In this document: in pieces, positions 18,704-42,071 of the stretch
Position numbering within the stretch: position 1 is the stretch's first letter
How the letters are laid out: every line of letters starts with the position of its first letter
Assembly (NCBI GenBank): GCA_963798845.1
Contig: CAWCUS010000002.1
Coordinates: forward strand, 512,001 to 576,000
Source of the DNA: an uncultured Gemmatimonadales bacterium
GTDB lineage: Bacteria; Gemmatimonadota; Gemmatimonadetes; Longimicrobiales; RSA9
Length of the DNA stretch: 64,000 nt
Direction: 5' to 3'
Program-made: the position numbers and the translations under genes
The notes under the pieces: model-generated
What the model saw: only the letters and a program-made list of their open reading frames with translations
Databases searched by the model: none
Told to the model about the DNA's origin: nothing

Positions 18704-19783
18704 ATGACGGACGCCGTGCGGGTCACGGACGCGGCAACGCGGATCGAAGTCCGGTTCCCCTACGACGCGGAGCTGGTCGGCCACATCCGCTCGATACCGG
18801 GCCGGCGCTGGGACCCGGGCCGATCGGCGTGGCTGCTCCCGCGCACCGAGGACGCCCTCAACGCGCTGCTCCGGGCGCCCGACGCGAGCTTCCGCGTCGA
18901 CCGCGGTCTCATGCACCTGGTCCGCGTCCCGTTCCGCCGGGGCAGCGGAACCGATCCGGCGGCGGCGCTCCTCCAGCGCCTCTCGGAAGAGCTCCGGCTC
19001 CAGGGATACAGTCCGCGCACGCGGAAGAACTACGTCGGCCACGTCCGTCGGTTCTTCGGAGCTTTCCCGAAGGCCGCGACCGAGCTGTCGACGGAGCACG
19101 TCCGCGCTCACCTGCTCCGCCTCCAGGCCGACGACCGCTCCGTCTCCTACCAGCACCAGGCGATCAGCGCCATCCAGTTCGCGGCCCGGCTCGTCGATCG
19201 GCCGCTCGCGCTGGAGCCGATCCGCCGCCCGAAGCGGGAGCGCCAGCTCCCCGCCGTTCTCTCACGCGAGGAAGTGCGCCGCATCCTCAATGCCCCCGCC
19301 AACCCGACCCACCGGCTGGCCCTGATGCTCGCGTACTCCGCCGGACTCCGCGTCGGCGAGGTCGTACGCCTCAGCGCCGGCGACGTGGATTCCGGGCGAG
19401 GGCTGATCCGGGTCCGCGCCGGGAAGGGAAGGAAGGACCGCTATACGCTGCTGGCCGATGCCGCGGCCGCCGCCCTCGACCCCGTCCTCGCCCGCCTCGA
19501 CGCCGACGCCTGGATCTTCCCCGGTGCCCGCCCCGGCCGCCACCTGACGACACGCTCCGTGCAGAAGACCTTCGAGCGCGCCCTGGTCCGGTCCGGCGTA
19601 CGCAAGCACGCCACCGTGCACACGCTCCGCCACAGCTTCGCCACCCACCTCCTCGAGGCCGGCGTCAACCTCCGCTACATCCAGGAGCTCCTCGGCCACA
19701 CGAGCCCCCGCACCACCCAGATATACACCCACGTCAGCCGCGGCGATCTTACCCGGATCGTGAACCCGCTCGACGCAGCGTGA
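18704..19783 (+). CDS. Tyrosine recombinase, integron-integrase-like (N-terminal HARP-like domain, SAM-like domain, catalytic domain) lacking the IntI-specific insertion
   Basis: 'YSPRTRKNY', 'YSAGLRVGE', 'GKGRKDR', 'HTLRHSFATHLLEAG', 'IQELLGH', 'TTQIYTHV'; sits directly upstream of the cassette array. Confidence 0.92.
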   Translation: MTDAVRVTDAATRIEVRFPYDAELVGHIRSIPGRRWDPGRSAWLLPRTEDALNALLRAPDASFRVDRGLMHLVRVPFRRGSGTDPAAALLQRLSEELRLQGYSPRTRKNYVGHVRRFFGAFPKAATELSTEHVRAHLLRLQADDRSVSYQHQAISAIQFAARLVDRPLALEPIRRPKRERQLPAVLSREEVRRILNAPANPTHRLALMLAYSAGLRVGEVVRLSAGDVDSGRGLIRVRAGKGRKDRYTLLADAAAAALDPVLARLDADAWIFPGARPGRHLTTRSVQKTFERALVRSGVRKHATVHTLRHSFATHLLEAGVNLRYIQELLGHTSPRTTQIYTHVSRGDLTRIVNPLDAA

Positions 19784-19982
19784 GGGGGAAGCGGCCGTCG
19801 GCCGCTCGAATCAGCCCCGTGCAAACGGCCGTGCTGAGCCCCTGTACAAGGTCATTGCTTCTGAACAAGAATGGCCCCAAATAGAGATGATTCGGGTCAG
19901 GCGGCCGGGGTGGGTGGCTCCGACAATCTGATAAGGACCTTTCCCGAACGACCGGCGCAAACATCCGGCCCGCCGACATCCT

Positions 19983-20016
19983 ACCGAACACGAGTTCGGT
20001 AACGCAGTAGTTAAGT
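19983..20016 (+). other. Candidate attI-like primary recombination site (TAAC-N6-GTTA) with adjacent palindrome
   Basis: GTTAAGTGC at 20010 is the reverse complement of the first cassette's R'' (GCACTTAAC, 20186-20194); no attC arm upstream; palindrome accgaac-acga-gttcggt at 19983-20000. Confidence 0.75.
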
Positions 20017-20194
20017 GCCATGCGCGCAACGGATCATTCGGGCGGGTACTGTGCTCGCCAGCGGCTGGTTCAGGAAAGCTCCAGGCCTCGAGCTGAGCTA
20101 AGATTGCCCCGCCCCGCCCGGGGAGGGCTAGGGGGGAGAGGCCCAGCAGCTAGAACGAAAGGGAAGACAGGGCAAGGCGCGCACAGCACTTAAC
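20010..20194 (+). other. Cassette 1: gene-less/micro-ORF cassette type A (57-codon ORF 20020-20193, no RBS)
   Basis: Bounded by complementary GTTAAGTGC/GCACTTAAC; ends similar to type B cassette. Confidence 0.7.
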
Positions 20195-20337
20195 ACACGG
20201 TTGCCGCCTCCGCTCGCTTCGCGAGCTCCGGAGTACCCGGCGGATTAGCGAACGGAGTTCGGGAAGTATCCGGACGGGGGAGGGGAAACGAGCAATCGAG
20301 GGGGCGGACGCCGGGTCGCCCACCTGAAACGTTAGCC
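20188..20337 (+). repeat. attC-like site 1
   Basis: ACTTAAC...acccggcg...cgccgggt...GTTAGCC. Confidence 0.85.
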
Positions 20338-20509
20338 GCCATGCGCGCGGAGGAGGCTCTTGGGTGTTGCGCCCGAAATCGGCCGAGCAGGAAAGGGAAG
20401 AGCTTCGTTCTGAGGATTGGCTGCCCCACCCCACCCAAGAGGCCCAGATTCGTGAAGGGCTTGGAGCTTTGGTTTGCGAGGGCAGGGCAGGGCGCACACA
20501 GCGGCTAAC
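20331..20509 (+). other. Cassette 2: gene-less/micro-ORF cassette type B, copy 1
   Basis: GTTAGCCGC...GCGGCTAAC; near-identical copies at 21400 and 28536. Confidence 0.85.
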
Positions 20510-20654
20510 AACACGGTTGCCGCCTGCGCTCGCTGCGCTCGCTCCGGAGAACCCGGCGGATTAGCGAACTCGTGTTCGGAAAAGCGGCGGTGGATTGAAG
20601 CTACTGTGCACTCGGATCGCTGGACCGCCGGGTCGGCAACCGGAAACGTTATGC
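20503..20654 (+). repeat. attC-like site 2
   Basis: GGCTAAC...cggttgccg...cggcaaccg...GTTATGC. Confidence 0.9.
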
Positions 20655-20670
20655 GGCATCCGCTTCAGAG

Positions 20671-20940
20671 CTACAGGCGCTTCAAGAGTTGGTCATAGTC
20701 GGCGTGTGAGCCGATCCAGAACCAGATCCAGTCATCGTCGGCGCGGCGGGCCAAGGCTCTGTAGTGGAGCGATATGCGGGCTGAGAAGATCGGCTCGGTC
20801 GCGTGAACCTGCTTGAACTGCAGGCTCGGATGAGCCGGATTGGCGGAGAAGAGGTCGAAGGCCTCGCGAGCCCGCTCCTGGACGTCGGTAGGAAGTGAGG
20901 AATAGGCCTTCCGAAAAGATGAAGTGGTGCGGGAGGTCAA
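20671..20940 (-). CDS. RelE/ParE-superfamily toxin (cassette 3, inverted relative to array)
   Basis: 'NPAHPSLQFK...SARISLHYRAL...WFWIGSHADYD'. Confidence 0.85.
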   Translation of the reverse strand: MTSRTTSSFRKAYSSLPTDVQERAREAFDLFSANPAHPSLQFKQVHATEPIFSARISLHYRALARRADDDWIWFWIGSHADYDQLLKRL

Positions 20941-21155
20941 AGCTTGGACGGGTCGAGGTTTTCCGTCTCACCTCGTGCGTCTTCGGCGAGGGCTTCGTTC
21001 GCGAGCTTCGCCAAGTCGTCCTGGGAGTTTTCAAAGGTCCGATCCCAGTTTCGATCGGACTCGAGCTCCTCCAGGAGTAGAGCGGCGATGGCGTCCTGCT
21101 GCTCGCTGGGGAGCTTGGACGCTTCGTCGAAAGCCTTCTTGAGTAGTTCGGTCAT
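20937..21155 (-). CDS. Cognate antitoxin (cassette 3)
   Basis: 72-aa acidic ORF 'MTELLKKAFDEASKLP...', RBS AAGGAGG, 4-nt overlap with the toxin. Confidence 0.85.
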   Translation of the reverse strand: MTELLKKAFDEASKLPSEQQDAIAALLLEELESDRNWDRTFENSQDDLAKLANEALAEDARGETENLDPSKL

Positions 21156-21173
21156 GAGATCCTCCTTGGCCGG

Positions 21174-21203
21174 ATGATACCCAGGAGGGGATCGGCAGTT
21201 CAA
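21174..21203 (-). promoter_or_regulatory. Putative promoter of the cassette 3 TA operon
   Basis: Minus strand TTGAAC-18 bp-TATCAT just upstream of the RBS. Confidence 0.55.
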
Positions 21204-21250
21204 GAGCGAGAGGCGGTTTGCGGAGCGAAAGGCCTGGATTTGCGGACACC

Positions 21251-21406
21251 GCATAACAAACGGTTGGCGCCTGCGGTCGCTTCGCTCCCTCCGGAGAACC
21301 CCGCGATCAAGATCGTGGCGCCGGTCGAAGGGGCGGGGCAGTTTCGAAGGATGCTGCGCCGGGAAAAGCAGTGGCAGGCGGGGTCGCCAACCTGGAAACG
21401 TTAGCC
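21251..21406 (+). repeat. attC-like site 3
   Basis: GCATAAC aaacggttggcg...cgccaacctggaaac GTTAGCC. Confidence 0.9.
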
Positions 21407-21578
21407 GCCATGCGCGCGGAGGAGGCTCTTGGGTGTTGCGCCCGAAATCGGCGGAGCAGGAAAGGGAAGAGCTTCGTTCTGAGGATTGGCTGCCCCACCC
21501 CACCCAAGAGGCCCAGATTTGTGAAGGGCTTGGAGCTTTGGTTTGCGAGGGCAGGGCAGGGCGCACACAGCGGCTAAC
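21400..21578 (+). other. Cassette 4: gene-less/micro-ORF cassette type B, copy 2
   Basis: Two substitutions relative to copy 1. Confidence 0.85.
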
Positions 21579-21679
21579 AACACGGTTGCCGCCTGCGCTC
21601 GCTGCGCTCGCTCCGGAGAACCCGGCGGATTAGCGAACTCGTGTTCGGAAAAGCGGCGGTGGATGAAGAAACGTTAAGC
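21572..21679 (+). repeat. attC-like site 4, internally deleted (right arm lost)
   Basis: Matches site 2 up to 'ggtggat', then jumps to 'gaaacGTTAAGC'. Confidence 0.8.
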
Positions 21680-21712
21680 GCAATTGACGCAGCGTACTCG
21701 AAGGGAGGCTGG

Positions 21713-22714
21713 ATGAGGCTGTCCAGCAGAACGATCAGTGATCTTGCCGAACTGATCTGCGGTGCTAGCGGTGGCGGTGGCGGCTATGACTGGTCACACT
21801 TCCCATACAGATCCAGCTCCCGTCTCACCGAATTCTTCAGGAACTGCGACCTTGATTACGTTCATCAAGGTGAGACTAGGAAGTGGTGGGTCGAAGAGGT
21901 CCTTACGGAGCTCAACAAAGCACCTGCCTCCACTCCCCACCTCCCACCGGGCGGCATCATTCGAGTGCTCCAGGAGCTGCTGGACCCGCTGGACTATAAA
22001 CGGGCCGAACTAGATCAGTCCGCGGCGCTGAAGGACCTAAACGCGGTCGTCTCTCGGGATGGTTTGGAGGTTTACCTCGACGGGTCGCGTCGCGCGCATG
22101 TGAGGAATCGCGACACTGAGGCGACCTCTGCCAACCTTAAAATCCAGTCCCGCCCTCTGACCAAGGAAGAGTTGGAGAAGAGACGCAAGGCTGAGGAATT
22201 TCTCGAGAAAGCTTCGGAAGACGAGATAATCGAGGAGCTGCTTGTACCGTTGTTTCGACAGTTGAATTTTCTGCGAGTGAGTCCGACAGGGCACCGGGAC
22301 AGATCGCTGGAGTTCGGCAAGGACTTGTGGATGAAGTTCCAGCTGCCGACCGGTCACTTCATCTACTTCGGCGCTCAAGTCAAGCGAGACAAGATCGACG
22401 CCGCTGGAAGGGATGTCACCAAGAATATCAGCGGTATCATCGCCCAAGCAGAGATGATGCTAGACCACCCGGTTTTCGACCCAGAGAGCAACCGCAAGCA
22501 TCTCCTTGACCACGTCTTCATCATTTCAGGCGGGGAAATAACGAAGCAAGCGAGATCACTGATCGTGGAGAACCTGGACCGAGAGGCGCGCCGACATCTG
22601 ATCTTCATGGATCGAGACGAACTTCTTGATCTGGTGGTCCTTACGGGCACACGGATACCTGAAGAGGAAGCTGAGGCTGCGAGTTCGCCGATCGATGATG
22701 ACCTGCCATTCTAG
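21713..22714 (+). CDS. Cassette 5: putative PD-(D/E)xK / Mrr-like restriction endonuclease with helical N-terminal domain
   Basis: 'LLVPLFRQLNF...EFGKD...GAQVK' fits an Mrr-type D...QxK active site; RBS GGGAGG. Confidence 0.65.
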   Translation: MRLSSRTISDLAELICGASGGGGGYDWSHFPYRSSSRLTEFFRNCDLDYVHQGETRKWWVEEVLTELNKAPASTPHLPPGGIIRVLQELLDPLDYKRAELDQSAALKDLNAVVSRDGLEVYLDGSRRAHVRNRDTEATSANLKIQSRPLTKEELEKRRKAEEFLEKASEDEIIEELLVPLFRQLNFLRVSPTGHRDRSLEFGKDLWMKFQLPTGHFIYFGAQVKRDKIDAAGRDVTKNISGIIAQAEMMLDHPVFDPESNRKHLLDHVFIISGGEITKQARSLIVENLDREARRHLIFMDRDELLDLVVLTGTRIPEEEAEAASSPIDDDLPF

Positions 22715-22744
22715 GCGGGTGGACAGTGAAGGGGCGTCAACTGC

Positions 22745-22893
22745 GCTTAACAAACGGTTGGCGCCTGCGCGGCCTGCGGCCGCTCCGGAGAACCCGCCGC
22801 GGCCGTGTTGAAGCTGGTGAGAGGATCGCAGTTTCGAAGGTGATGCGCACTGGAGGTTGTGGCGCGGCGGGTCGCCAACCTGGAACGTTATCT
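22745..22893 (+). repeat. attC-like site 5
   Basis: GCTTAAC...GTTATCT with consensus arms. Confidence 0.9.
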
Positions 22894-23286
22894 GCAATTG
22901 GCTCAACGACTGAGGGAGGGTGAATGGACCTCAAGCGCGTCCTCGAAGAAATCTCTGATCATCTCGCGCCGAAGCTGGACACCTATGAGCACGCCCTCTA
23001 CACGTACCTGTTCCGCAACACGGTGCTGCGAGGAGAACCAGAGGCTGTAATCGGCTTCAAATCTGCGCGCCACGAGTTGCCGAGGGGAATCGGGACCGCA
23101 GGAACGGCAATGGCCGAGGGGACATGCTATGAGAAGCTCAGGTCCTTAGAAGCCAAGGGCTGCATCAAGGTGTTGGGTACAGAACGGCAAGGAACGCGGG
23201 TGCGGCTGTTCTTGCCGAGTGATATTGTGGGTTCTCTGAACTATGTCCGGTTAATTCTCGAAATTCTGGCCGGCCGGGAGCGTGAG

Positions 23287-24062
23287 CTAGGCGGCTTCAG
23301 AGTCCGGGGTCTCCTCCTGTTTGAGATGGCGGGTGCGGTAGGAGCGGCCGCGGAGCACGAAGTGAGTGCCGCGCTCCAGGAGCCGGTCGAGGATCGCCTC
23401 CGCAAGATCGGCATCATGCAGCACCTGACCGAGGGCGGCCAGAGGCTTATTGGTGGTGACGATCATGGGTCGGTGCCTGAGGTAGCGGTCGTTGACCACC
23501 CGGTAGAGCACGTTGGCGGCATCGGCGGCATAGCTCTGATAGCCGAGCTCGTCGATGATCAGGACGTGGGGGTGGACGTAGGGTTCGAGCGCCTCGTCCA
23601 GCCGTCCCTCAGTGGCCGCGTTGGAGAGGGCGCCGATCAGCTCATCCGCGGTGGTGAATCGGGCCTCGAATCCGTTCTGGATCGCTCGGTAGCCGATGGC
23701 TACCCCCATGTGGGTCTTCCCTCGACCCGGCGGGCCGCTGAAATGGCGCACCGGCCTTCGCTCACCAGCTCCGGCCCCAGCAGCGTGCCGAGCATCTGGA
23801 GGCGGACGCTGGTCTGGAAGGTGAAGTCGAATTCCTCAATGGTGCGGAGGAAGGGGAAGCGGGCCTTGCGGACGGACCGGGTGATCCGGGTCTGCGCCCG
23901 GTGAGCGATCTCCTCGGCCACCAGCAGCTCGAGGAAGGTGCGGTAGCTCATGCCCTCCTCCTCGGCCCGGATCGCCAGGTCCGGATACAGGCGCCGGATG
24001 GTCGGCATGTGGAGGCGCTTGAGCATGGCGTCGAGGTCGTCCAGCGGCACCGGAGTCTTCAT
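23287..24062 (-). pseudogene. istB: IstB ATPase with 1-bp deletion frameshift near 23742
   Basis: gctgaaatgg here versus gctgaagatgg in the intact copy; could be a sequencing error. Confidence 0.85.
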
Positions 24063-25468
24063 GAGGCCACCTCCTTCGCCGCCAGCCCGATCACGTACTC
24101 AGCTCCGATCAGCCGCTGGAAGAGCGCGCGCTGGAGCAGGCGGAGGAAGCGCTCCTGGCCGAGCTCCTCGAGCAGGGCGAAGAGGCGCTCCACGTCTCCT
24201 TTCCATGTGTGGGGTCGGGCGTGGATGAGCTCCGTCAGGTAGCCCTCTCCTACGGGCCCCAGCTCCAGGATTCGCTCCCGCATGAAGTAGAGGCGCTTCC
24301 GTGCACCGGCCACGGCCGCCAGCTGCTCGGCCCGCTGGCCGGGCAGGTAGCTGGTGTTTCCGATCTTTGGAAACCTGGGGTGGGTGGCCTCGAAGCGGGC
24401 GCCGGTGGTGACGATCCGGAGCCGGTCCGGGTACAGGTGGAGCGTGGCCGGGATCCCGCACGCACCCGCCGGCATGGCGTAGCGCACGCCCTGGAAGTCC
24501 ACGAGCGCGGTGGGTCCCACGTGGACAGCGTAACGCAGACCGTACTCGGCCGGCGGGATGGCCAGCGGCTTCATCCGCGCCTGCTCTGCGGTCAGCCGGA
24601 TCTTGGGGATCTCCTTCGTGGCCCGGGATGGCCGCTCCTCATTCCCCCCGATCAGCCAGTCCAGGAGCTGACGGGGGAGGTCCTGGTCGAGCTCAGCGAA
24701 GCGGCGGGCCCGGAAGAAGCTCCGCTTCACCCACCCCACCAGATTCTCCACCGATCCCTTCTGCTGCGGGCTCCTGGGCGTGCACAGCCCGATCGTGAAG
24801 CCATAGTCGATGGCGACCTGGGCCAGCGTGGAATTCCAGATCGGCCGGCCCCGGTCGTCGCGGCCCACCACCACCGTCTTCGGATTGTCGAAGACCACCC
24901 GGAGCGGCACCCCGCCCGAATGCTCGAAGCCGGCCAGGAGTGCCCGGACGAGTGACTCGATCCGCTCGTCCGGCACGATCACCACCCACACCCACCGCGA
25001 GTACTTCAGACGGTACGCCGCGAAGTGAACTCGCTTCTTCCGTCCATCCAGCAGCCGGACGTCGGCCTGACCGAAATCGAACTGGGCGAACTCCCCGGCC
25101 ACCCCCTCGAACCGCACCATCAGCTCCGCCGGCAGCTTCCCCTTCTCCAACCGGAAGACCCGGTAGAAGGTGCTCTCCGCCAGCTCCGCCCCCTCCTCCC
25201 GAAGCTGACGCAGGTATTCCAGGGGTGGAGCCTCGGGATCCTCCGCGATCAGATCCACCAGCCGGCGCTTCACCGCCTCCGGCACCGCGGGACGCCCGAT
25301 CCCCCGGCGCTTCCTCTCCGCCGCATCGTCTCCCTCCGCCACCGGCGGCTCCTTCGAGATCCGACGGACAGACCGCTCCGAGATCCCCAGCTGCCTCGCG
25401 ATTTCCGTCTGCTTCTGCCCCGCCTCCAGCAGCGCATGCACCGCATGTCGATCGATCACCCTGAGCAT
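24059..25468 (-). CDS. istA: IS21 transposase IstA
   Basis: N-terminal HTH, 'FAQFDFG', 'VFDNPKT', 'KGSVENLV'. Confidence 0.95.
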   Translation of the reverse strand: MLRVIDRHAVHALLEAGQKQTEIARQLGISERSVRRISKEPPVAEGDDAAERKRRGIGRPAVPEAVKRRLVDLIAEDPEAPPLEYLRQLREEGAELAESTFYRVFRLEKGKLPAELMVRFEGVAGEFAQFDFGQADVRLLDGRKKRVHFAAYRLKYSRWVWVVIVPDERIESLVRALLAGFEHSGGVPLRVVFDNPKTVVVGRDDRGRPIWNSTLAQVAIDYGFTIGLCTPRSPQQKGSVENLVGWVKRSFFRARRFAELDQDLPRQLLDWLIGGNEERPSRATKEIPKIRLTAEQARMKPLAIPPAEYGLRYAVHVGPTALVDFQGVRYAMPAGACGIPATLHLYPDRLRIVTTGARFEATHPRFPKIGNTSYLPGQRAEQLAAVAGARKRLYFMRERILELGPVGEGYLTELIHARPHTWKGDVERLFALLEELGQERFLRLLQRALFQRLIGAEYVIGLAAKEVAS

Positions 25469-26021
25469 CCTCCCCCGCCTCCATCTGACAGGAACTCCAT
25501 CCTGCCCGGGACGGGACTACAGTATTCTACGGAGGCTCCTCAGCCGGCCAGATTTTCGAGAGATCAGCGGTCAGAATTCGGGGAACTCACAGATATCGAC
25601 GGCGTCGTCCCAGTTGTTGGGGAAGAGCAGCGGCCCCGCCTAGAAGATCTGGACTTTTTCAATAATGCCTCAAATCGCGAGGCTATCCTGCGGCGAGAGG
25701 ATGGCCGCTGCTTCTATTGCCTTCGGCAGGTTGATGGATCGAATCATGTGATCGAACACCTTACGGCACGGCGGGAGGGAGGCAACGGATACACCAACGT
25801 GGTCGCCGCCTGTCGAGAGTGTAACAATAGGAAGGGGGCAGGCAGTCCTGAGGACCATCTTCGGCGGCTCTATAGGAGTGGTCTCCTGAACGCCGACGAA
25901 ATGGAAGGTCGTTTGGCCGCCCTTGATCTGGTCAGGACGGGCCAGCTAAAGCCGACGCTCGCGGATTTTGAGGATGCGGAGGTTGCCTAGGCGAGTGGAC
26001 CTCGGACGGGGAGCCAACTGC

Positions 26022-26172
26022 AGATGACAAACGGTTGGCGCCTGCGCGGCCTGCGGCCGCTCCGGAGAACCCGCCGCGACCGTGCCGAAGCTGGTGAGGT
26101 GTTCGCAGTTTCGAAGGTGATCGCGCGCCTGAGGTTGTGGCGCGGCGGGTCGCCAACCTGGAAACGTTAGAC
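26022..26172 (+). repeat. attC-like site 6 (R'' variant AGATGAC)
   Basis: Consensus arms; ends GTTAGAC. Confidence 0.88.
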
Positions 26173-26200
26173 GGCATTCCTTTGGAGCGGGAAAGGTCTG

Positions 26201-27297: not shown

Positions 27298-27318
27298 TAT
27301 CCCTCATGGAGGAACGCC

Positions 27319-27469
27319 GTCTAACAAACGGTTGGCGCCTGCGCGGCCTGCGGCCGCTCCGGAGAACCCGCCGCGGCGGCTTGGAAGCTGGTGAGGTTCG
27401 TGTGATTTCGAAGGTGATCATGCGCTGGAGATAGTGGCGCGGCGGGTCGCCAACCTGGAAACGTTAGGC
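27319..27469 (+). repeat. attC-like site 7
   Basis: GTCTAAC...GTTAGGC. Confidence 0.9.
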
Positions 27470-32256: not shown

Positions 32257-32264
32257 GGAGAGGA

Positions 32265-33985: not shown

Positions 33986-34275
33986 AGGTCATCCTTCGCA
34001 GCATTGCAGAACAGGATGTCGCGGCAGCAGTCGGATGGTACGAAGAGCAGAGCTCAGGTCTGGGTGATCGCTTTCTGCTGAACGTCCGTGCTGCACTCGA
34101 GCGGATCGGAGAACATCCGGAGGCGTACCCCCTGGTGCACCCTCCGCACCTACGACGGATCTTGCTGTCGGATTTCCCCTACGGGTTGTTCTACCTGATG
34201 GAGCTGGACCGAGCTGTGGTCACGGCGTGCTTCCACGTGCGGCAGAATCCGAAGCGCTGGAGCAGTCGTGGCTGA
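33982..34275 (+). CDS. Cassette 14: RelE/ParE family toxin
   Basis: 'VGWYEEQSSGLGDRF...FPYGLFY...FHVRQNP'. Confidence 0.88.
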   Translation: MKVILRSIAEQDVAAAVGWYEEQSSGLGDRFLLNVRAALERIGEHPEAYPLVHPPHLRRILLSDFPYGLFYLMELDRAVVTACFHVRQNPKRWSSRG

Positions 34276-34297
34276 AAGGGCGCTGCGCTCCGCCGGC

Positions 34298-34450
34298 ACA
34301 TAACAAACGGTTGGCGCCTGCGCTCCCTGCGGTCGCTCCGGGGAACCCGGCGAATGACCTGTTGGCTGGAGGAAGGGCTGCGGGTAATTCAGAAGATGGG
34401 GCGCGATCCGGCGAATTGGACGCCGGGTCGCTCACCTGGAAACGTTAGGC
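34298..34450 (+). repeat. attC-like site 14
   Basis: ACATAAC...GTTAGGC. Confidence 0.88.
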
Positions 34451-34469
34451 GCCACTGCTGGTGGTTCAT

Positions 34470-34844
34470 ATGCCCAAGAAGGAGCAGTACAGGAAGAAGC
34501 AGATGCGGGATCTGGCTCGGGTTGCGTATGAGCGTGAACTCGAGGCGGGGCTCGAACAGCTACGCGAGCCGTTCCATGCCTGGGAGAACGGGGACATGGA
34601 CGCGAGTGAGTTGTCGCTGCGGATATCGTTCTTCTCGATGGATGCGCAGAAGCGGATTGAAGGGGTCTACTCCGGCTTGGACAAACGTACCCTGGTCGCG
34701 CGGGGCGTCGCGCTGGGTTTGCTGGAAGAGGCAGACCTTCCGCCGAAGCTGAAGGAAGAACTCACCGGGGCCATCGATTTCTTCAGGTCGCAATCCCAAC
34801 GTGAGGCAGAGGAGGACGCGGCCAAGAAGGGCAGCGGCGCCTAA
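34470..34844 (+). CDS. Cassette 15: hypothetical helical protein; stop codon lies inside R''
   Basis: ORF spans the cassette and ends at the TAA of GCCTAAC. Confidence 0.8.
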   Translation: MPKKEQYRKKQMRDLARVAYERELEAGLEQLREPFHAWENGDMDASELSLRISFFSMDAQKRIEGVYSGLDKRTLVARGVALGLLEEADLPPKLKEELTGAIDFFRSQSQREAEEDAAKKGSGA

Positions 34845-34990
34845 CAAACGGTTGGCGCCTGCGCGGCCTGCGGCCGCGCCGGAGAACCCGCCGCGGCCGC
34901 CTGGGAGCTGGTAAGGTTCGTGTGGCTTCGAATGGTGATCGCGCTCTGGAGGTTTCGGCGCGGCGGGTCGCCAACCTGGAAACGTTAGAC
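34839..34990 (+). repeat. attC-like site 15
   Basis: GCCTAAC...GTTAGAC. Confidence 0.9.
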
Positions 34991-35510
34991 GCCATGCTTG
35001 CGGTGTGGTGATGAGATAAGGTGCAGGTCGGTCGTCTTTGGAAGAGAAGCGAGCGCATGAGCACGAAAGCAGTACCCATGATCCATGTGCCTGATGTCCG
35101 TGCGGCGGTCGAGTGGTACAAAATGGTGGGCTTTCGATTCTTGGAAGGGCATGAGGAGGATGGGGAAATGACGTGGGCGGCGCTCTCGCTGGGGTCAAGT
35201 GAGTTGATGCTTAACGCCGGCGGCCGCGCTAGTGACGCCGAGCGCAGGGACGTCGATCTCTACGTCTACTCTGAGGATGTCGCAGAAGTCTTCGAGCGCC
35301 TCAAAGGAAGGGTAGATATCATTGCACCGATCAGTGACACGTTCTACGGGAATAGGGAATTCATTGTCCGGGATCTCAACGGCTTCTTGTGAGTTCCCCG
35401 AATTCTGACCGCTGATCTCTCGAAAATCTGGCCGGCTGAGGAGCCTCCGTAGAATACTGTAGTCCCGTCCCGGGCAGGATGGAGTTCCTGTCAGATGGAG
35501 GCGGGGGAGG

Positions 35511-36920
35511 ATGCTCAGGGTGATCGATCGACATGCGGTGCATGCGCTGCTGGAGGCGGGGCAGAAGCAGACGGAAATCGCGAGGCAGCTGGGGATCTCG
35601 GAGCGGTCTGTCCGTCGGATCTCGAAGGAGCCGCCGGTGGCGGAGGGAGACGATGCGGCGGAGAGGAAGCGCCGGGGGATCGGGCGTCCCGCGGTGCCGG
35701 AGGCGGTGAAGCGCCGGCTGGTGGATCTGATCGCGGAGGATCCCGAGGCTCCACCCCTGGAATACCTGCGTCAGCTTCGGGAGGAGGGGGCGGAGCTGGC
35801 GGAGAGCACCTTCTACCGGGTCTTCCGGTTGGAGAAGGGGAAGCTGCCGGCGGAGCTGATGGTGCGGTTCGAGGGGGTGGCCGGGGAGTTCGCCCAGTTC
35901 GATTTCGGTCAGGCCGACGTCCGGCTGCTGGATGGACGGAAGAAGCGAGTTCACTTCGCGGCGTACCGTCTGAAGTACTCGCGGTGGGTGTGGGTGGTGA
36001 TCGTGCCGGACGAGCGGATCGAGTCACTCGTCCGGGCACTCCTGGCCGGCTTCGAGCATTCGGGCGGGGTGCCGCTCCGGGTGGTCTTCGACAATCCGAA
36101 GACGGTGGTGGTGGGCCGCGACGACCGGGGCCGGCCGATCTGGAATTCCACGCTGGCCCAGGTCGCCATCGACTATGGCTTCACGATCGAGCTGTGCACG
36201 CCCAGGAGCCCGCAGCAGAAGGGATCGGTGGAGAATCTGGTGGGGTGGGTGAAGCGGAGCTTCTTCCGGGCCCGCCGCTTCGCTGAGCTCGACCAGGACC
36301 TCCCCCGTCAGCTCCTGGACTGGCTGATCGGGGGGAATGAGGAGCGGCCATCCCGGGCCACGAAGGAGATCCCCAAGATCCGGCTGACCGCAGAGCAGGC
36401 GCGGATGAAGCCGCTGGCCATCCCGCCGGCCGAGTACGGTCTGCGTTACGCTGTCCACGTGGGACCCACCGCGCTCGTGGACTTCCAGGGCGTGCGCTAC
36501 GCCATGCCGGCGGGTGCGTGCGGGATCCCGGCCACGCTCCACCTGTACCCGGACCGGCTCCGGATCGTCACCACCGGCGCCCGCTTCGAGGCCACCCACC
36601 CCAGGTTTCCAAAGATCGGAAACACCAGCTACCTGCCCGGCCAGCGGGCCGAGCAGCTGGCGGCCGTGGCCGGTGCACGGAAGCGCCTCTACTTCATGCG
36701 GGAGCGAATCCTGGAGCTGGGGCCCGTAGGAGAGGGCTACCTGACGGAGCTCATCCACGCCCGACCCCACACATGGAAAGGAGACGTGGAGCGCCTCTTC
36801 GCCCTGCTCGAGGAGCTCGGCCAGGAGCGCTTCCTCCGCCTGCTCCAGCGCGCGCTCTTCCAGCGGCTGATCGGAGCTGAGTACGTGATCGGGCTGGCGG
36901 CGAAGGAGGTGGCCTCATGA
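35511..36920 (+). CDS. istA: IS21 transposase IstA
   Basis: Same protein as copy 1 except one residue (IEL versus IGL). Confidence 0.95.
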   Translation: MLRVIDRHAVHALLEAGQKQTEIARQLGISERSVRRISKEPPVAEGDDAAERKRRGIGRPAVPEAVKRRLVDLIAEDPEAPPLEYLRQLREEGAELAESTFYRVFRLEKGKLPAELMVRFEGVAGEFAQFDFGQADVRLLDGRKKRVHFAAYRLKYSRWVWVVIVPDERIESLVRALLAGFEHSGGVPLRVVFDNPKTVVVGRDDRGRPIWNSTLAQVAIDYGFTIELCTPRSPQQKGSVENLVGWVKRSFFRARRFAELDQDLPRQLLDWLIGGNEERPSRATKEIPKIRLTAEQARMKPLAIPPAEYGLRYAVHVGPTALVDFQGVRYAMPAGACGIPATLHLYPDRLRIVTTGARFEATHPRFPKIGNTSYLPGQRAEQLAAVAGARKRLYFMRERILELGPVGEGYLTELIHARPHTWKGDVERLFALLEELGQERFLRLLQRALFQRLIGAEYVIGLAAKEVAS

Positions 36921-37693
36921 AGACTCCGGTGCCGCTGGACGACCTCGACGCCATGCTCAAGCGCCTCCACATGCCGACCATCCGGCGCCTGTATGCGGAC
37001 CTGGCGATCCGGGCCGAGGAGGAGGGCATGAGCTACCGCACCTTCCTCGAGCTGCTGGTGGCCGAGGAGATCGCTCACCGGGCGCAGACCCGGATCACCC
37101 GGTCCGTCCGCAAGGCCCGCTTCCCCTTCCTCCGCACCATCGAGGAATTCGACTTCACCTTCCAGACCAGCGTCCGCCTCCAGATGCTCGGCACGCTGCT
37201 GGGGCCGGAGCTGGTGAGCGAAGGCCGGTGCGCCATCTTCAGCGGCCCGCCGGGTCGAGGGAAGACCCACATGGGGGTAGCCATCGGCTACCGAGCGATC
37301 CAGAACGGATTCGAGGCCCGATTCACCACCGCGGATGAGCTGATCGGCGCCCTCTCCAACGCGGCCGCGGAGGGACGGCTGGACGAGGCGCTCGAACCCT
37401 ACGTCCACCCCCACGTCCTGATCATCGACGAGCTCGGCTATCAGAGCTATGCCGCCGATGCCGCCAACGTGCTCTACCGGGTGGTCAACGACCGCTACCT
37501 CAGGCACCGACCCATGATCGTCACCACCAATAAGCCTCTGGCCGCCCTCGGTCAGGTGCTGCATGATGCCGATCTTGCGGAGGCGATCCTCGACCGGCTC
37601 CTGGAGCGCGGCACTCACTTCGTGCTCCGCGGCCGCTCCTACCGCACCCGCCATCTCAAACAGGAGGAGACCCCGGACTCTGAAGCCGCCTAG
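36917..37693 (+). CDS. istB: IS21 helper ATPase IstB
   Basis: 'GPPGRGKTH', 'LIIDELGY', 'ILDRLL'. Confidence 0.95.
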   Translation: MKTPVPLDDLDAMLKRLHMPTIRRLYADLAIRAEEEGMSYRTFLELLVAEEIAHRAQTRITRSVRKARFPFLRTIEEFDFTFQTSVRLQMLGTLLGPELVSEGRCAIFSGPPGRGKTHMGVAIGYRAIQNGFEARFTTADELIGALSNAAAEGRLDEALEPYVHPHVLIIDELGYQSYAADAANVLYRVVNDRYLRHRPMIVTTNKPLAALGQVLHDADLAEAILDRLLERGTHFVLRGRSYRTRHLKQEETPDSEAA

Positions 37694-37849
37694 CTCACGC
37701 TCCCGGCCGGCCAGAATTTCGAGAATTAACCGGACATAGTTCAGAGAACCCACATGGCTGACGTTTGGACAGCAACTCGAGGCCGCAGAGCAATCGGATG
37801 CTACTCCGAGCGTCTGAGGCCCAGCGTCTAGAGGGGCGCAATCACGGCG

Positions 37850-38955
37850 CTTGAAGTCAACTTTGAAGTGCAACGTTCATAGTGTTGATCCGGGCTGATT
37901 CTCATATATCTCCGCGGGGGTGAGGAAGCCGAGCCGCTTGCGGGGTCGGTGGTTGAGGGCGGCAGCGATCCGGTCACAGTGGATCTGGGTGACTCGAGCC
38001 ATGCTCTGACGCTTCGGGAGATACTGCCGGATGAGGCCGTTCGTGTTCTCGCAGGTGCCTCGCTCCCAGGAGTGGTGGGGAGCGGCGAAGTAGACCGTGG
38101 CGCCGGTGGCCTTCTCCAGGGCTTTGTAGCCGTGGAACTCGGTCCCATTGTCGAGGGTGACGGTTCGGATGCGGCGGCCGGCGTTGCGGATCAGGGAAGT
38201 GGCGCACCGGTTCGTGGCGTCGGCGGTCCGGCCGCGCAGCTTGCCGAGGAGCAGGTAGCCGGTCTTCCGGTCCACCAGGGTGAGGACGCAGTGGCGGTCG
38301 GAGGATCCGATGACCGTGTCTCCTTCAAGGTGGCCCACGCGCGAGCGGTTCTCTGCGCCGGGCGGTCGCTCGGAAATGGGACGCTTGCCGGCAAGACGGC
38401 CGCGGCTGTCGTAGCTGCGGTAGCGCTTCCACTTCTTCTTCCTCGCGCCGCGCAGGTACTGATAGAGGAGGCCGCCCCTGCGGCGGTCCTCCCAGACGTA
38501 GCGATAAATGGTCTCGTGGCTGATGCGGAGCACGCCCGCCCGGGCGAGTCGGCCAGTGATCTGCTCGGGGCTCCACAGCTGCTGGAGCAGCGAACAGACC
38601 AGGGCCCAGTCATCGCCGCGGAAGCGTCGGTTCCGTCGGGATCGCGTGCGGCGGCCGCGGGTCATCTCGTCGGCCACCGCCGGCCGGTAGGCGCGGTCCT
38701 GTCTCGAGTTGCGCGTGATCTCCCGGCTGATCGTGCTCGGACTTCGGTCCAGCGCGCGGGCAATGCCGGCCTGACTGAAGCCTTGTTTTCTGAGCGCCGA
38801 GAGTGCATGTCGTTCACCTGAGGTGAGCTGGTGATATCCCATGAGCCCCTCCTATTTCTTGGTCGAAACAGGAAGCTCTGGGGTGTCCCAGCTCATCTCA
38901 ACCCCGGCACTCCTTCGAGCGGAGTCGAGCGTTGCACTTAGTTTGTGAATCCAAG
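37850..38955 (-). mobile_element. IS30-family insertion sequence
   Basis: Imperfect 26-bp IRs cttgaagtca...aagtgcaacg / cgttgcactt...gaatccaag; GCG on both flanks. Confidence 0.88.
37877..38842 (-). CDS. IS30 family transposase
   Basis: 'WSPEQI', 'SHETIY', 'GHLEGDTV', 'TLDNGTEF', 'WERGTCENTNGLIRQYLPK'. Confidence 0.95.
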   Translation of the reverse strand: MGYHQLTSGERHALSALRKQGFSQAGIARALDRSPSTISREITRNSRQDRAYRPAVADEMTRGRRTRSRRNRRFRGDDWALVCSLLQQLWSPEQITGRLARAGVLRISHETIYRYVWEDRRRGGLLYQYLRGARKKKWKRYRSYDSRGRLAGKRPISERPPGAENRSRVGHLEGDTVIGSSDRHCVLTLVDRKTGYLLLGKLRGRTADATNRCATSLIRNAGRRIRTVTLDNGTEFHGYKALEKATGATVYFAAPHHSWERGTCENTNGLIRQYLPKRQSMARVTQIHCDRIAAALNHRPRKRLGFLTPAEIYENQPGSTL

Positions 38956-38957
38956 GC

Positions 38958-39109
38958 GTATAATAAACGGCTGGCGCCTGCGCGGCCTTCGGCCGCTCCG
39001 GAGAAACCCGGCGCAGCCGTCCTTGAGCGGTCCGACTGACATGTAGTTTCGAAGGTTGTTGAGCCGGGGAGGCCTGGCGCGGCGGGTCGCCAGCCTGGAA
39101 ACGTTATCG
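38958..39109 (+). repeat. attC-like site 16 (degenerate R'' GTATAAT)
   Basis: aaacggctggcg...cgccagcctggaaac GTTATCG. Confidence 0.82.
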
Positions 39110-39191
39110 GCCAGCGCAGAGACGGATGGTCCGACGCAGAATATTGTTGAGTACGAATCTCCTGCGACCGTAGACTGCGAGGTTACCTCTG

Positions 39192-39759: not shown

Positions 39760-39935
39760 CGATAACACAGTTTCGATCGGACTCGAGCTCCTTGAGGAGC
39801 AGAGAAGCAATGGCGTCCGGGATCGGCAGTTCAAGGCCGGCGTTCCTGGGCCTCTGGTGAGGAGATTGCAGTTTCGAAGGTGGCCGCGCGCTGGAGCTTT
39901 CGGCGCGGCGGGTCGCCAACCTGGAAACGTTAAGT
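39760..39935 (+). repeat. attC-like site 17, chimeric (left arm replaced by antitoxin-derived sequence)
   Basis: R'' CGATAAC matches the cassette start; right arm is consensus; 39768-39832 resembles 21046-21095. Confidence 0.75.
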
Positions 39936-39995
39936 GCCATCACGTTGGCTCGCCCCAAGCGTTAGATTGAGGCGGCTACCAACGGGAGGAACTCA

Positions 39996-40202
39996 ATGAA
40001 GTACCGCGTGCTGATCGAGCAGGACGAGGCCGGTTTTTTCGTGGCTGAGGTGCCGGCTCTGCCTGGGTGTGTGAGTCAGGGCGATACGCGGCGGGAGGCG
40101 CTCGCCAACATCCGAGAGGCGATCGCGGGTTATCTGGAGAGCCTCGAGGATCACCAGGAGCCGGTGCCTCCCTCGATCCATGAGGAGATCGTGGAGGTGT
40201 AG
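39996..40202 (+). CDS. hicB: Cassette 18: HicB family antitoxin
   Basis: 'VAEVPALPGCVSQGDTRREALANIREAI'. Confidence 0.9.
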   Translation: MKYRVLIEQDEAGFFVAEVPALPGCVSQGDTRREALANIREAIAGYLESLEDHQEPVPPSIHEEIVEV

Positions 40203-40427
40203 GTGGCCGAGCTGCCAGTCGTCTCGGGACGCGAGGCAGTGAAGGCGTTCGGCAGGATTGGCTACGGTGTCGATCGCCAGCGTGGAAGTCACATCATTCT
40301 GAGACAGGCGGAACCCCCTCATCGCCGCCTGACGATTCCGGACCACAAAGAACTTCGGAAGGGAACGTTACGGGCTCTGATCCGACAGGCTGGATTGTCG
40401 GTGGATGAGTTCGCCGCGTTGCTCTAG
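40203..40427 (+). CDS. hicA: Cassette 18: HicA family toxin
   Basis: 'RQRGSHIIL...TIPDHKELRKGTLRALIRQAGL'. Confidence 0.9.
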   Translation: MAELPVVSGREAVKAFGRIGYGVDRQRGSHIILRQAEPPHRRLTIPDHKELRKGTLRALIRQAGLSVDEFAALL

Positions 40428-40482
40428 AAACAGCGAAACCGCTCGTTCGGTCAGCATCTCGAAGCTGGTTGGGCGTGACGGC

Positions 40483-40633
40483 AATAGACAAACGGTTGGC
40501 GCCTGCGCGGCCTGCGGCCACTCCGGAGAACCCGCCCCGATTAGCTGGACTCTGGTGAGATTCGTGCAGTTTCGAAGGTGATCGCGCGCTGAAGGTTTCG
40601 GCGTGGCGGGTCGCCAGCCTGTGAACGCTGAGC
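40483..40633 (+). repeat. attC-like site 18, degenerate at both R boxes
   Basis: AATAGAC aaacggttggcg...cgccagcctgtgaac GCTGAGC. Confidence 0.75.
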
Positions 40634-40767
40634 GAAAGGTGCCTTTGGAATCCCAATGGGACGTCAGACAAGGGAGAGAAGGAGGGATGCTGGAGGAGAC
40701 GTGGCGATGTAACTGAAGTGAATAGGGCGGACGGCTGGCGACGCCCGAAATATCAAGCGGAGGCGCG

Positions 40768-41265
40768 ATGCGAAGAAACCCCTCAGCGACGGTGACGGAA
40801 TTCCTCGAGAGTCTTCCGGGTGACCGGCAGAGGACCGTGGAGGCAGTACGGGCCCTGATTCGGCGACACCTGCCCCATGGATACGAGGAGGTGGTGGCGA
40901 AGAATATGCTGGTCTACCAGGTGCCGTTGAGCCGGTATGCGGATACGTACAATGGCTATCCGTTGTGGTATGTGGCCTTGGCGTCGGAGAAGTCGTATCT
41001 CTCGCTTCACCTGATGCCGGTCTACGGGAGCGCTATCTACGCGGATCGCCTAAGGGAGGGCTTCCGGAAGGAAGGCAAGCGCCTGAACATGGGTAAGGCA
41101 TGCGTGCGGTTCCGCAAGATCGAGGACCTAGCCCTCGATCCGATCGGTGAACTGGTTGGAAGCGTGTCGGTTGATCGTTGGGTGGAGATTGCCCAAAGTG
41201 CGCGATCTGGAAGGTCGCGGGACGGGTCCGCTGCTCGCGCGACAGCCCGTGGGAGGGACGGATAG
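40768..41265 (+). CDS. Cassette 19: DUF1801 (YdhG-like) protein
   Basis: 'YQVPLSRYADTYNGYPLWYVALASEKSYLSLHL...MGKACVRF'. Confidence 0.8.
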   Translation: MRRNPSATVTEFLESLPGDRQRTVEAVRALIRRHLPHGYEEVVAKNMLVYQVPLSRYADTYNGYPLWYVALASEKSYLSLHLMPVYGSAIYADRLREGFRKEGKRLNMGKACVRFRKIEDLALDPIGELVGSVSVDRWVEIAQSARSGRSRDGSAARATARGRDG

Positions 41266-41460
41266 ACGCGGTGGGGAAGCGTTGGTTGGGGATTGTCCCC
41301 GCCGAGGTGGTGCGGCGACGATCGCCTGGTTGGTCGGCGATCGATCGCCGCTCCAGCGTCATCGGGGCTGATGATCAACCACCGGATGCGGAATCAGGAC
41401 GCCATGCTTGCCGAGCTTCGTGCTGCCGGGGCGGAGGTGGAGCACCCGCTCGAAAGTTAG

Positions 41461-41482
41461 CGCCGACCTGGAAACGTCAAGC
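41461..41482 (+). repeat. attC-like site 19 remnant (right end only, GTC core)
   Basis: cgccgacctggaaacGTCAAGC. Confidence 0.65.
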
Positions 41483-41524
41483 GCCATTCCCAACCAGAGG
41501 AACGCGCGTGTCGAAAGCGGCGGC

Positions 41525-42037
41525 ATGATCGACGGTCCCCACATCGAGGTGGCGGACGGCATGGCCGTCGTAGGTATTCATTGTCCCATGAGCTTCACCG
41601 AGCCGATGATGCGGGAGCTGTGGCAAGAGTTTCGGCCAAGGGTCAAGGATGTAAAAGGCAGAGCATCGGACAGCTTCATCTCGATGCGCGTCTATGACGA
41701 ACCGGTGGGAGCGGCGCCCGCTCCGGGATCGAAATTCGAGCAGTGGGCGGCGGTCGAGGTGGACGCATCAGCGGAGGTACCGCAGGGAATGGACTCTCAC
41801 AGGCTCGCGGGTGGGCTGTACGCAGTATTCACCCACCGCGGTCGAGCGGACGCGTTCGGAGATGTGGTACGTTACATCTACGGAGACTGGCTGCCGAGAT
41901 CAGAGTTCGAGCTGGCAGATCGTGAGTTTTTCGAAGTGTTGGGGCCTTCGTATCGTCCGGATGATCCGGAGGCGAGCGAGACGATCTGGATTCCTGTCCA
42001 GGAACGAGGCAGGCCCGGAGATCGGAACGGCGCTTGA
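41525..42037 (+). CDS. Cassette 20: GyrI-like small-molecule-binding protein
   Basis: 'FEQWAAVEV...GGLYAVFTHRG...YIYGDWLP...ETIWIPV'; stop inside R''-like GCTTGAC. Confidence 0.85.
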   Translation: MIDGPHIEVADGMAVVGIHCPMSFTEPMMRELWQEFRPRVKDVKGRASDSFISMRVYDEPVGAAPAPGSKFEQWAAVEVDASAEVPQGMDSHRLAGGLYAVFTHRGRADAFGDVVRYIYGDWLPRSEFELADREFFEVLGPSYRPDDPEASETIWIPVQERGRPGDRNGA

Positions 42038-42071
42038 CAGACGGTTTCACATCCCTGCCCCGGGGGCAAAG

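Follow-up and report, generated by a model that had tools for sequence, protein, structure and literature searches.

The recombinase gene and its cassette array

The window analysed here is the whole stretch of 64,000 nucleotides (nt) at G000:C2:512001-576000, from an uncultured Gemmatimonadales bacterium with a genome of 4.26 Mb in 6 contigs and 70% G+C (G-labels denote the genomes compared, G000 being the source genome; C-labels denote contigs and L-labels extracted loci). At 18704-19783 the window encodes a tyrosine recombinase, and downstream of it an array of cassettes runs from 20010 to about 42825. The array comprises about 19 cassettes with 17 clear and 2 decayed folded sites of about 150 nt bearing AAC/GTT boxes, in agreement with an earlier note on this DNA, which had described about 20 cassettes with folded AAC/GTT repeats. 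G+C content is 58-66% at 20-42 kb of the window versus 70-77% in the flanks. We asked whether the recombinase and the array together constitute an integron-like platform, and we use the integron terms attC for the sites within the array and attI for the site at its head.

Direct-repeat analysis and an alignment of 14 sites defined the repeated element of about 150 nt. It begins with TAAC, followed by a short spacer, an L'' arm of 8-9 nt, a small GC-rich hairpin, a second stem and a variable middle, and continues through the complementary arms to the GAAACGTTA box. From these 14 window sites we built a covariance model, R1 (156 positions, 28 pairs). At E<=0.01 it matched 19 sites in the whole G000 genome, of which 17 lie in the window array, all on the + strand, and the other two at C5:360203-361122. 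With filters off, two more decayed remnants emerged at 41322-41485 and 42763-42825; as these lie at the distal end, the array decays away from the recombinase. The Rfam gathering scan of the window returned 0 matches, and thus no Rfam attC family was matched. A promoter and terminator consensus scan of 18300-20700 found nothing, but such a scan is uninformative for this phylum. The features of the locus are as follows.

18704-19783, + strand: tyrosine recombinase, 359 amino acids (aa) from ATG 18704; an in-frame upstream ATG at 18650 would give 377 aa
18704-18990, + strand: N-terminal domain of the recombinase, likely HARP-like, modelled as five strands and two helices
19960-20012, + strand: attI, crossover at the G of GTT 20010, 227 nt after the recombinase stop codon
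20186-20340, + strand: attC 1 (R1, 119 bits); cassette 1, 20010-20331, has no clear open reading frame (ORF)
20501-20657, + strand: attC 2 (R1, 121 bits); cassette 2, 20331-20648, is copy A of the triplicated cassette
21249-21409, + strand: attC 3; cassette 3, 20648-21400, has two - strand ORFs, for a ParE-like toxin (20671-20940) and a small partner (20937-21155)
21570-21682, + strand: attC 4 (R1, 56 bits), internally deleted; cassette 4, 21400-21673 (273 nt), is copy B of the triplicated cassette
22743-22896, + strand: attC 5 (R1); the ORF of cassette 5, 21713-22714, has no family match
26020-26175, + strand: attC 6 (R1); cassette 6, 22887-26166, holds a gene whose 3' part encodes an HNH domain and which is split by an IS21-family element (23225-25482)
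27317-27472, + strand: attC 7 (R1); cassette 7 encodes a DUF3800 protein (26608-27297)
27971-28131, + strand: attC 8 (R1)
28391-28545, + strand: attC 9 (R1)
28706-28862, + strand: attC 10 (R1); cassette 10, 28536-28853, is copy C of the triplicated cassette
31559-31714, + strand: attC 11 (R1); cassette 11, 28853-31705, is enlarged by an IS21-family element (about 29467-31549)
32463-32620, + strand: attC 12 (R1)
34296-34453, + strand: attC 13 (R1); cassette 13 holds a ParE toxin (33982-34275)
34837-34993, + strand: attC 14 (R1)
38956-39112, + strand: attC 15 (R1); cassette 15, 34984-39103, holds a glyoxalase-family gene (35021-35392)
35497-37754: IS21-family element in cassette 15, cutting the glyoxalase-family gene
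37877-38842, - strand: IS30-like transposase in cassette 15
39799-39938, + strand: attC 16 (R1, 39.5 bits), left half degenerate
40481-40636, + strand: attC 17 (R1), R boxes mutated; cassette 17 encodes HicB (39996-40202) and HicA (40203-40427)
41322-41485, + strand: attC 18, decayed (R1, 16.6 bits, E 0.0036); cassette 18 encodes a DUF1801 protein (40768-41265)
41420-42037 and 42072-42719: GyrI-like/Cass2 and RibD_C genes before the last remnant
42763-42825, + strand: last attC remnant, decayed (R1, 15.2 bits, E 0.008, partial model)

Cassette boundaries and orientation

For each cassette we compared the 12 nt from the GTT of the preceding site, i.e. the cassette head, with the reverse complement of the cassette's own R'' (the inner box). 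An exact match of 9-10 nt was found in 11 of the 16 testable cassettes, and in cassette 6 the match extends over 9 of 10 positions with one substitution. It fails in cassettes 12, 13, 15 and 17, while cassettes 16 and 18 have no identifiable R''. As a control, the head of the following cassette matches the same R'' at only 4-5 nt in those 11 cassettes. The pattern of heads complementary to their own R'' had been claimed before for 13 of 18 cassettes. The pattern is real and both of the examples quoted then (20648/21249 and 28853/31558) are as stated, but the count was slightly high. Moreover, such complementarity is the signature of classical integron cassettes and in itself nothing unusual.

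Because head/R'' complementarity is the same whichever box holds the crossover, orientation was tested separately. One cassette is present in three copies (cassettes 2, 4 and 10, the second with a truncated attC), as had been noticed earlier. Identity among the three copies extends from one GTT box to the next, whereas the attC bodies on their left are different. It follows that an attC forms one unit with the cassette to its left and that the crossover lies in the right-hand GAAACGTTA box, on the + strand. The mirror-image model, in which the crossover lies at the left AAC box and the array on the - strand, was ruled out by the boundaries of the triplicated cassette, the decay of the sites on the right and the position of attI. 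By analogy with classical integrons, the strand exchange point inside GAAACGTTA is most likely G|TT.

Predicted fold of the attC sites

The window sites have the features that define an integron attC, namely imperfect inverted repeats arranged as R''-L''...L'-R', AAC/GTT boxes and the ability to fold into a hairpin. In the predicted folds the R boxes are paired, the spacer is unpaired, the L stem is continuous over 8-9 bp and a second stem spans 7-10 bp. A side hairpin branches from the inner (L'') arm, which gives a three-way junction. Asymmetry in the predicted fold comes from the spacer (4 versus 7 nt, with a possible single bulged T) and from the L'' side hairpin. In an alignment of 53 sites from 7 genomes, which was fitted to R1 and consists of related sequences (2 of its 53 rows coming from the unpublished G017), 92.7% of the cells are paired and compensatory changes occur in 22 of the 28 pairs. 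None of 500 shuffles reached the observed value, and in slid controls 24-42% were paired. The side hairpin is also present in the divergent sites of G010 and G013; those of G010 belong to another sequence family with the same architecture.

The recombinase lacks the IntI insertion

The window protein has a SAM-like domain (residues 107-177) and a catalytic domain (203-363) according to Pfam, in the numbering of the 377-aa form. Residues R234, K259/K262, H324, R327, H350 and Y359 are invariant in 26 full-length homologues sharing 44-91% identity. The best NCBIfam model is that of the integron integrase, TIGR02249, at 204 bits against a cut-off of 265, so that the protein falls below the curated threshold. 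The match is in two stretches, with profile positions 180-234 omitted. Likewise, the alignment to the solved VchIntIA structure (2a3v) is in two pieces, with 26 residues in the window protein facing 68 in VchIntIA. The same difference is seen in the spacing between the GKGxKxR and HxLRH motifs, which is 66 residues in the window protein and 63-67 in its clade, 70-76 in Xer-type proteins and 106-108 in canonical IntI. All clade members checked share the gap at the place of the insertion. The Xer models also remain below their cut-offs: XerA (NF040815) scores 195 against 220 bits, and XerC and XerD score 173 against 335 and 163 against 330 bits, respectively. Together with the absence of an insertion of roughly 40 residues, the score below the TIGR02249 cut-off and the HARP-like N-terminal domain, described next, uphold the earlier proposal that the recombinase is not a standard IntI.

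The first ~80 residues form a conserved domain with the motif G-R-x-W...W, which is invariant in the family (26 homologues). Pfam HARP (PF07443) matches it at 17 bits, below the cut-off of 25, and 8 of the 26 homologues match at E<=0.01. An AlphaFold2 (AF2) model built from 19 sequences has a predicted local distance difference test score (pLDDT) above 87 over residues 1-70 and shows five strands and two helices. When this model was compared with PDB using Foldseek, the top match was the HARP domain of SMARCAL1 (4o66; E 0.03, probability 0.96), and there was no match at E<=0.001. VIA ranked first the N-terminal domain of T4 UvsW (Z 7.3, root-mean-square deviation 1.8 Å over 60 residues), followed by the damage-recognition domain of XPB (Z 5.9) and 4o66 (Z 4.3). 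According to PMC4666394, UvsW has a single N-terminal HARP domain, and the HARP fold consists of five strands and two helices. Since these scores are middling, we regard the HARP-like nature of the modelled domain as likely.

The attI site and cassette turnover

The sequence just ahead of the first cassette contains a small inverted repeat and then TAAC-6 nt-GTTA, before the crossover GTT. Starting at 20010, 9 nt form the reverse complement of the R'' box in cassette 1. As expected of an attI, the site lies beside the integrase gene, the insertion is in a GTT box and the head of the inserted cassette is complementary to its own R''. The first head matching the R'' of cassette 1 lies 227, 236, 106 and 94 nt after the stop codon in G000, G001, G005 and G013, respectively, and the motif preceding GTT is kept in G000, G001 and G005 and partly in G013. 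In G405, G381 and G327 the first head is found about 230, 460 and 760 nt after the stop codon. A small rearrangement distinguishes G001 (L103) at this place: about 236 nt after its recombinase stop, the 10-nt motif before the attI crossover is tandemly duplicated relative to G000.

Between G000 and G001, identity is 93% over the stretch that spans the upstream gene and the recombinase and ends at position 20009; from 20010 on their cassettes differ. Cassettes 3 and 11 (the latter minus its IS21-family element) recur in G001 at other positions at 99% identity, one attC at 100%, against 78-93% for the flanks. Similarity between the two genomes is thus higher in the cassettes than in the backbone, and the cassettes are arranged in a different order. 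The downstream flank is again syntenic from about 47.5 kb, at 73-90% identity. Metagenome contigs from three runs of one study (the only runs with 12-15% of sampled words; contigs only, with joints on single contigs at depth 2-3) provide some weak hints of rearrangement. One join leaves out precisely the 273 nt of cassette 4, a second one links the end of cassette 5 to the head of the preceding cassette 4, and three different continuations, each on a single contig, follow immediately after GTTA at 27466. On the evidence of these sequence comparisons, the array is genuine and recently active.

Related recombinases head similar arrays

Next to be considered is how consistently such recombinases and arrays occur together. 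Among 41 related genomes, 12 (including G000) have homologues whose match runs unbroken over the site of the insertion. Co-oriented R1 matches lie directly downstream of those in G001 (89% identity), G005 (70%) and G013 (53%) and, at lower R1 scores, of two G010 loci (47% and 53%) and of the gene in the unpublished G017. In this first set, 41 of 43 R1 matches at E<=1 are on the strand of the recombinase. In a wider sample of the phylum, 22 of 401 genomes have a clade member at E<=1e-55. Large co-oriented arrays were found in six of the nine new loci with at least 15 kb downstream (G296, G405, G276, G381, G327 and G313), and all 79 of their R1 matches are on the recombinase strand. The array beside the recombinase exceeds 24 kb in G405, 30 kb in G313 and 32 kb in G296. 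Genome-wide, most R1 matches fall in the array beside the recombinase, with few small satellite clusters elsewhere. The head/R'' rule also applies to the G001 and G013 arrays and to those of G010, where the attC belong to a different sequence family. Co-occurrence of sites and recombinase clade, which the earlier note had suggested checking with a custom covariance model, is thus borne out by R1. In total, relatives of the recombinase head co-oriented arrays in 11 published related genomes.

In 7 of these 11 genomes, one of them closed, no canonical IntI was seen. A canonical IntI above the TIGR02249 cut-off is present in two of the nine array-bearing genomes checked, G381 and G327. In G276, G313, G296, G405, G013, G005 and G010 there is no strong TIGR02249 match apart from the insertion-less genes; G276 is a single contig and 97% complete, G313 consists of 3 contigs and G013 of 5. 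G405 has, in addition, a 100-aa fragment matching profile positions 232-311.

One locus of G010 departs from this layout. At L107 (G010:C22:158619-162685) two identical 300-aa clade members that lack the N-terminal domain lie 3.2 kb apart, with no clear array after them. Both belong to a small subclade without the HARP-like domain, which also includes a Marinobacter protein encoded next to a canonical IntI (L078).

Phylogenetic position and wider family

We placed the recombinase in a tree of 79 sequences chosen for their similarity to the query (quick IQ-TREE, LG+C20, 289 columns, midpoint root). Two partial IntI, sequences shorter than 250 aa and about 30 Xer-like loci whose match starts after residue 140 were left out. 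The 13 IntI sequences are monophyletic with support 100, and the window clade is outside them; IntI and the window clade (25 sequences) group together with support 97. A branch with support 99 separates classical Xer proteins, including those of G000, from IntI, the window clade and insertion-less proteins of Bacteroidota, Patescibacteria and DPANN archaea. In this tree, therefore, the window clade is sister to IntI and not part of it. As the outgroups are insertion-less, gain of the insertion on the IntI stem is the simplest explanation, within the limits that sampling and rooting set to such a placement.

The family is large: a search at E<=1e-30 gave more than 4,600 proteins. For most of the 120 top-scoring ones the match includes the N-terminal domain, and judging by source names they belong to several phyla; one close homologue is labelled Longimicrobiales (Gemmatimonadota). 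For more distant members we used several array detectors. A first detector, based on chains of head/R'' k-mers, was dropped as too permissive, since shuffled windows reached chains of 3-5. A relaxed detector, which cannot distinguish strands, found chains of at least 3 in 6 of 19 metagenome loci (31-46% identity, at least 3 kb downstream) and in 0 of 19 shuffles. A strict detector, which demands a perfect 7-bp L stem and misses real sites, found no arrays in 80 genome-contig loci or in the 19 metagenome loci. These blanks carry little weight, because the same detector misses both canonical attC (0 in L009) and the true array of L138. The latter was the one locus among the 19 that was positive with a k-mer repeat detector. 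It is a low-G+C metagenome contig which, on inspection, shows the full layout at 2742-8160: a 46%-identical recombinase, about 80 nt after it a GTT head matching the inner box of the first cassette, and three 140-nt AAC...GTT sites. L138 thus has the same layout in what is evidently a different, AT-rich organism. A second metagenome contig, L158, encodes a 34%-identical homologue with the N-terminal domain, followed by 9 candidate sites linked by heads and inner boxes; their sequences are too divergent for k-mer detection. Thus, the recombinase-array association holds within the Gemmatimonadota clade and is suggested beyond it.

A second, canonical integron in the same genome

TIGR02249 also detects two adjoining stretches elsewhere in G000, C2:1322-1831 (profile 1-170, 197 bits) and C2:1827-2267 (profile 169-315, 216 bits), in different frames. 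By these profile matches, C2:1322-2267 is a canonical, insertion-bearing intI whose reading frame is broken by a frameshift or an assembly error. The frame switch in this locus (L009, C2:1240-8200), 510 kb from the window array, falls near 1827-1831. The gene is co-oriented with an array downstream (C2:3454-8195) of seven or eight attC that are shorter and of a different sequence type, and an R1 search of that array detected no site. G000 therefore holds two platforms, each with its own attC family. The earlier note had regarded co-orientation of recombinase and cassettes as a special trait. Since the canonical intI of G000 is equally co-oriented with its array, co-orientation is not peculiar to the non-canonical platform.

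Interpretation and alternatives

Taken together, these comparisons suggest that the window holds a sedentary chromosomal integron-like gene-capture platform run by the recombinase encoded at 18704-19783, a reading to which we assign a probability of roughly three in four. The recombinase would insert circular cassettes at attI, 227 nt downstream of its own gene, and would excise or shuffle cassettes between the ~150-nt attC-like sites, strand exchange taking place within the conserved GAAACGTTA box. We infer that this enzyme, and no other, would carry out the chemistry, and that attC would act as a folded single strand. According to Escudero et al. (2016), extrahelical bases together with the IntI-specific I2 helix govern strand choice and single strand exchange. 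In the window platform, this role may instead fall to the L'' side hairpin, recognised by the HARP-like N-terminal domain.

Several observations weigh against this interpretation. All the evidence for it is comparative, and the compared genomes are kin rather than independent. The tree comes from a quick method, is midpoint-rooted and was sampled by similarity to the query, and the HARP assignment is based on sub-threshold or middling scores (17 versus 25 bits; E 0.03; Z 7.3, a value of the order that such models often reach by chance). No array was shown in three of the nine new loci (none in G266, a gene fragment only in G325, an ambiguous case in G389). Only 6 of the 19 distant metagenome loci have chains according to the relaxed detector and none according to the strict one, and no repeat array is found within 10 kb downstream of the Psychroserpens homologue (L027, 32% identity). 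Finally, canonical IntI are present in G001, G381 and G327 and also in G000, where the gene is in split frames that could be a long-read assembly error and might act in trans on the array of the window.

This last point is the basis of the strongest alternative, namely that the array is a cluster of attC sites lacking an integrase (CALIN) that was built and is maintained by a canonical IntI, encoded at C2:1322-2267 or by a gene that has since disappeared, with the recombinase as a bystander that has another function. In favour of this view, Cury et al. (2016) found 50 PF00589 proteins without intI_Cterm near attC sites and judged that such recombinases are not IntI. We nevertheless consider the alternative unlikely. 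The canonical intI of G000 heads its own array with another attC type that R1 does not match, and most of the published array-bearing genomes (7 of 11) have no canonical IntI that we could see. Moreover, attI follows the recombinase stop by 94-236 nt in four genomes, the homology between G000 and G001 breaks exactly there, and every R1 match in the six further arrays is on the recombinase strand. Exactly this constellation, a canonical intI serving the array from elsewhere while homologues of the recombinase have no link to arrays, had been named in the earlier note as grounds for abandoning its idea. The canonical gene is indeed present, but its different attC type, the arrays beside the homologues and the genomes without canonical IntI all speak against its serving this array.

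It is less probable still that the recombinase is a degenerate, inactive IntI that has lost the insertion and that the arrays are fossils. TIGR02249 is indeed the best-scoring family of the protein, the distal sites have decayed and four IS elements sit inside cassettes. On the other side, the catalytic residues and the N-terminal motif are invariant among the 26 homologues despite their divergence, and the window clade falls outside a monophyletic IntI instead of being nested in it. In addition, the first cassettes differ between G000 and G001 in spite of a 93% identical backbone, and shared cassettes are 99-100% identical, i.e. closer than their flanks. We give the least credence, and very little of it, to the notion that the repeats are an ordinary intergenic family resembling repetitive extragenic palindromes (REP) or miniature inverted-repeat transposable elements (MITE), which a Xer-type or mobile-element integrase adjoins by chance. 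In its favour, great length (150 nt), GC richness and high similarity within a genome are traits that the sites share with many intergenic repeat families. However, the box of each repeat is matched by the start of its own unit and not of the next one, and the units differ between congeners at one fixed locus. The Xer homologues of G000, for their part, are located elsewhere and are separate on the tree, and the array stands out from its flanks by its lower G+C content (58-66% versus 70-77%).

If a cassette platform run by this recombinase is accepted, the observations can be combined into a broader scenario, which we put forward tentatively and consider somewhat less probable than its opposite. 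The window clade would represent an older, insertion-less lineage of cassette integrases, sister to IntI, for which I2 is dispensable and in which the HARP-like domain reads the three-way junction of attC. Classical IntI would be a later offshoot that swapped to I2, and many 'CALIN' arrays and 'integron-free' phyla would harbour complete platforms missed by current tools.

Cassette content, insertion sequences and satellite sites

Many cassette ORFs have no family match; beside them are genes for ParE and ParE-like toxins, HicAB, HNH, DUF3800, glyoxalase-family, DUF1801 and GyrI-like/Cass2 proteins. The GyrI-like protein (41420-42037), in cassette 19, the last recognisable one, also matches Pfam Cass2, described as an 'integron-associated effector binding protein'. 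Further downstream, 42072-47500 holds RibD_C, methyltransferase and other genes that were not found in the compared stretch of G001 (L103). They may be old cassettes whose sites have decayed.

The array carries three IS21-family and one IS30-like insertion. In the element of cassette 11 (29467-31549), the IstA-like (30372-31406) and IstB-like (29536-30606) genes are on the - strand. Because the copy of this cassette in G001, at 99% identity, is free of the element, the insertion is recent. The elements at 23225-25482 and 35497-37754 are diverged inverted copies of another IS21-family element of about 2.26 kb. The first copy has a truncated IstB gene of 120 aa, and G001 has one copy at 85% identity.

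The pair of window-type attC at C5:360203-361122 (- strand; 8204-9123 of L010), 764 nt apart, lies far from any recombinase of the clade and forms a small satellite cluster. Similar satellite clusters are present in G001, G276, G313 and G013.

Significance and comparison with known systems

Integron integrases are defined, in the literature as well as in the standard detection tool, by an insertion that is reported to be necessary for activity (see Cury et al. 2016); Messier and Roy are reported to have shown this in 2001. An active cassette platform with an insertion-less sister of IntI would call for a wider definition of the integron. It would also be a natural experiment on folded-attC recognition and strand choice, with implications for how integrons arose from Xer-like ancestors. 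Surveys of where integrons occur and of their cassette genes would then be undercounts, here in Gemmatimonadota, a phylum that Ghaly et al. (2021) include among those with integrons. Since the two platforms of G000, one canonical and the other not, have different attC types, their orthogonality is directly testable. Our full-text literature searches, in which subscription-only papers were outside coverage, retrieved no description of cassette arrays run by an insertion-less or HARP-fused recombinase.

In many respects the locus resembles classical integrons. The recombinase gene lies beside attI, a folded AAC...GTT repeat ends each cassette, and the crossover is assigned to GTT. The cassettes are mostly promoterless and co-oriented, their heads are complementary to their own inner box, and attC are homogeneous within the array. 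Even the cargo is similar, with toxin-antitoxin cassettes (ParE, HicAB) and a Cass2-family gene. With sedentary chromosomal integrons whose intI is co-oriented with the array, in particular, it has in common the turnover of cassettes between relatives at a fixed locus and a recombinase that appears as the sister of IntI. In contrast to classical integrons, the window recombinase lacks the insertion of ~35-40 residues near patch III (I2, intI_Cterm), scores below the TIGR02249 cut-off and has an extra, HARP-like domain, and attI comes after the 3' end of its gene. Unlike classical sites, the 150-nt attC of the window have an uninterrupted L stem of 8-9 bp, with no single-base bulge, and an L'' side hairpin that makes a predicted three-way junction.

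By the operational definition of Cury et al. (2016), in which a protein matching both PF00589 and intI_Cterm is absent from the surroundings, the array would be filed as a CALIN, provided that the attC model detected its sites. The window array differs from a CALIN in having a dedicated recombinase and an attI at its head, a pairing that recurs in relatives. It would therefore be a complete platform and not an orphan cluster. With Xer recombinases (XerC/XerD and archaeal XerA) the window protein shares the SAM-like domain and the catalytic core without insertion, and it reaches 195 bits with NF040815. On the other hand, it is below the XerA cut-off of 220, lies across the support-99 branch from Xer, has the HARP-like domain and is not paired with a single dif site, and G000 has separate Xer genes. 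Finally, the five-strand, two-helix layout of the N-terminal domain is that of the HARP domains of SMARCAL1 and T4 UvsW and of the damage-recognition domain of XPB, its best structural matches. Here, however, the domain is fused to a tyrosine recombinase rather than to a helicase/translocase motor, and the sequence similarity is sub-threshold.

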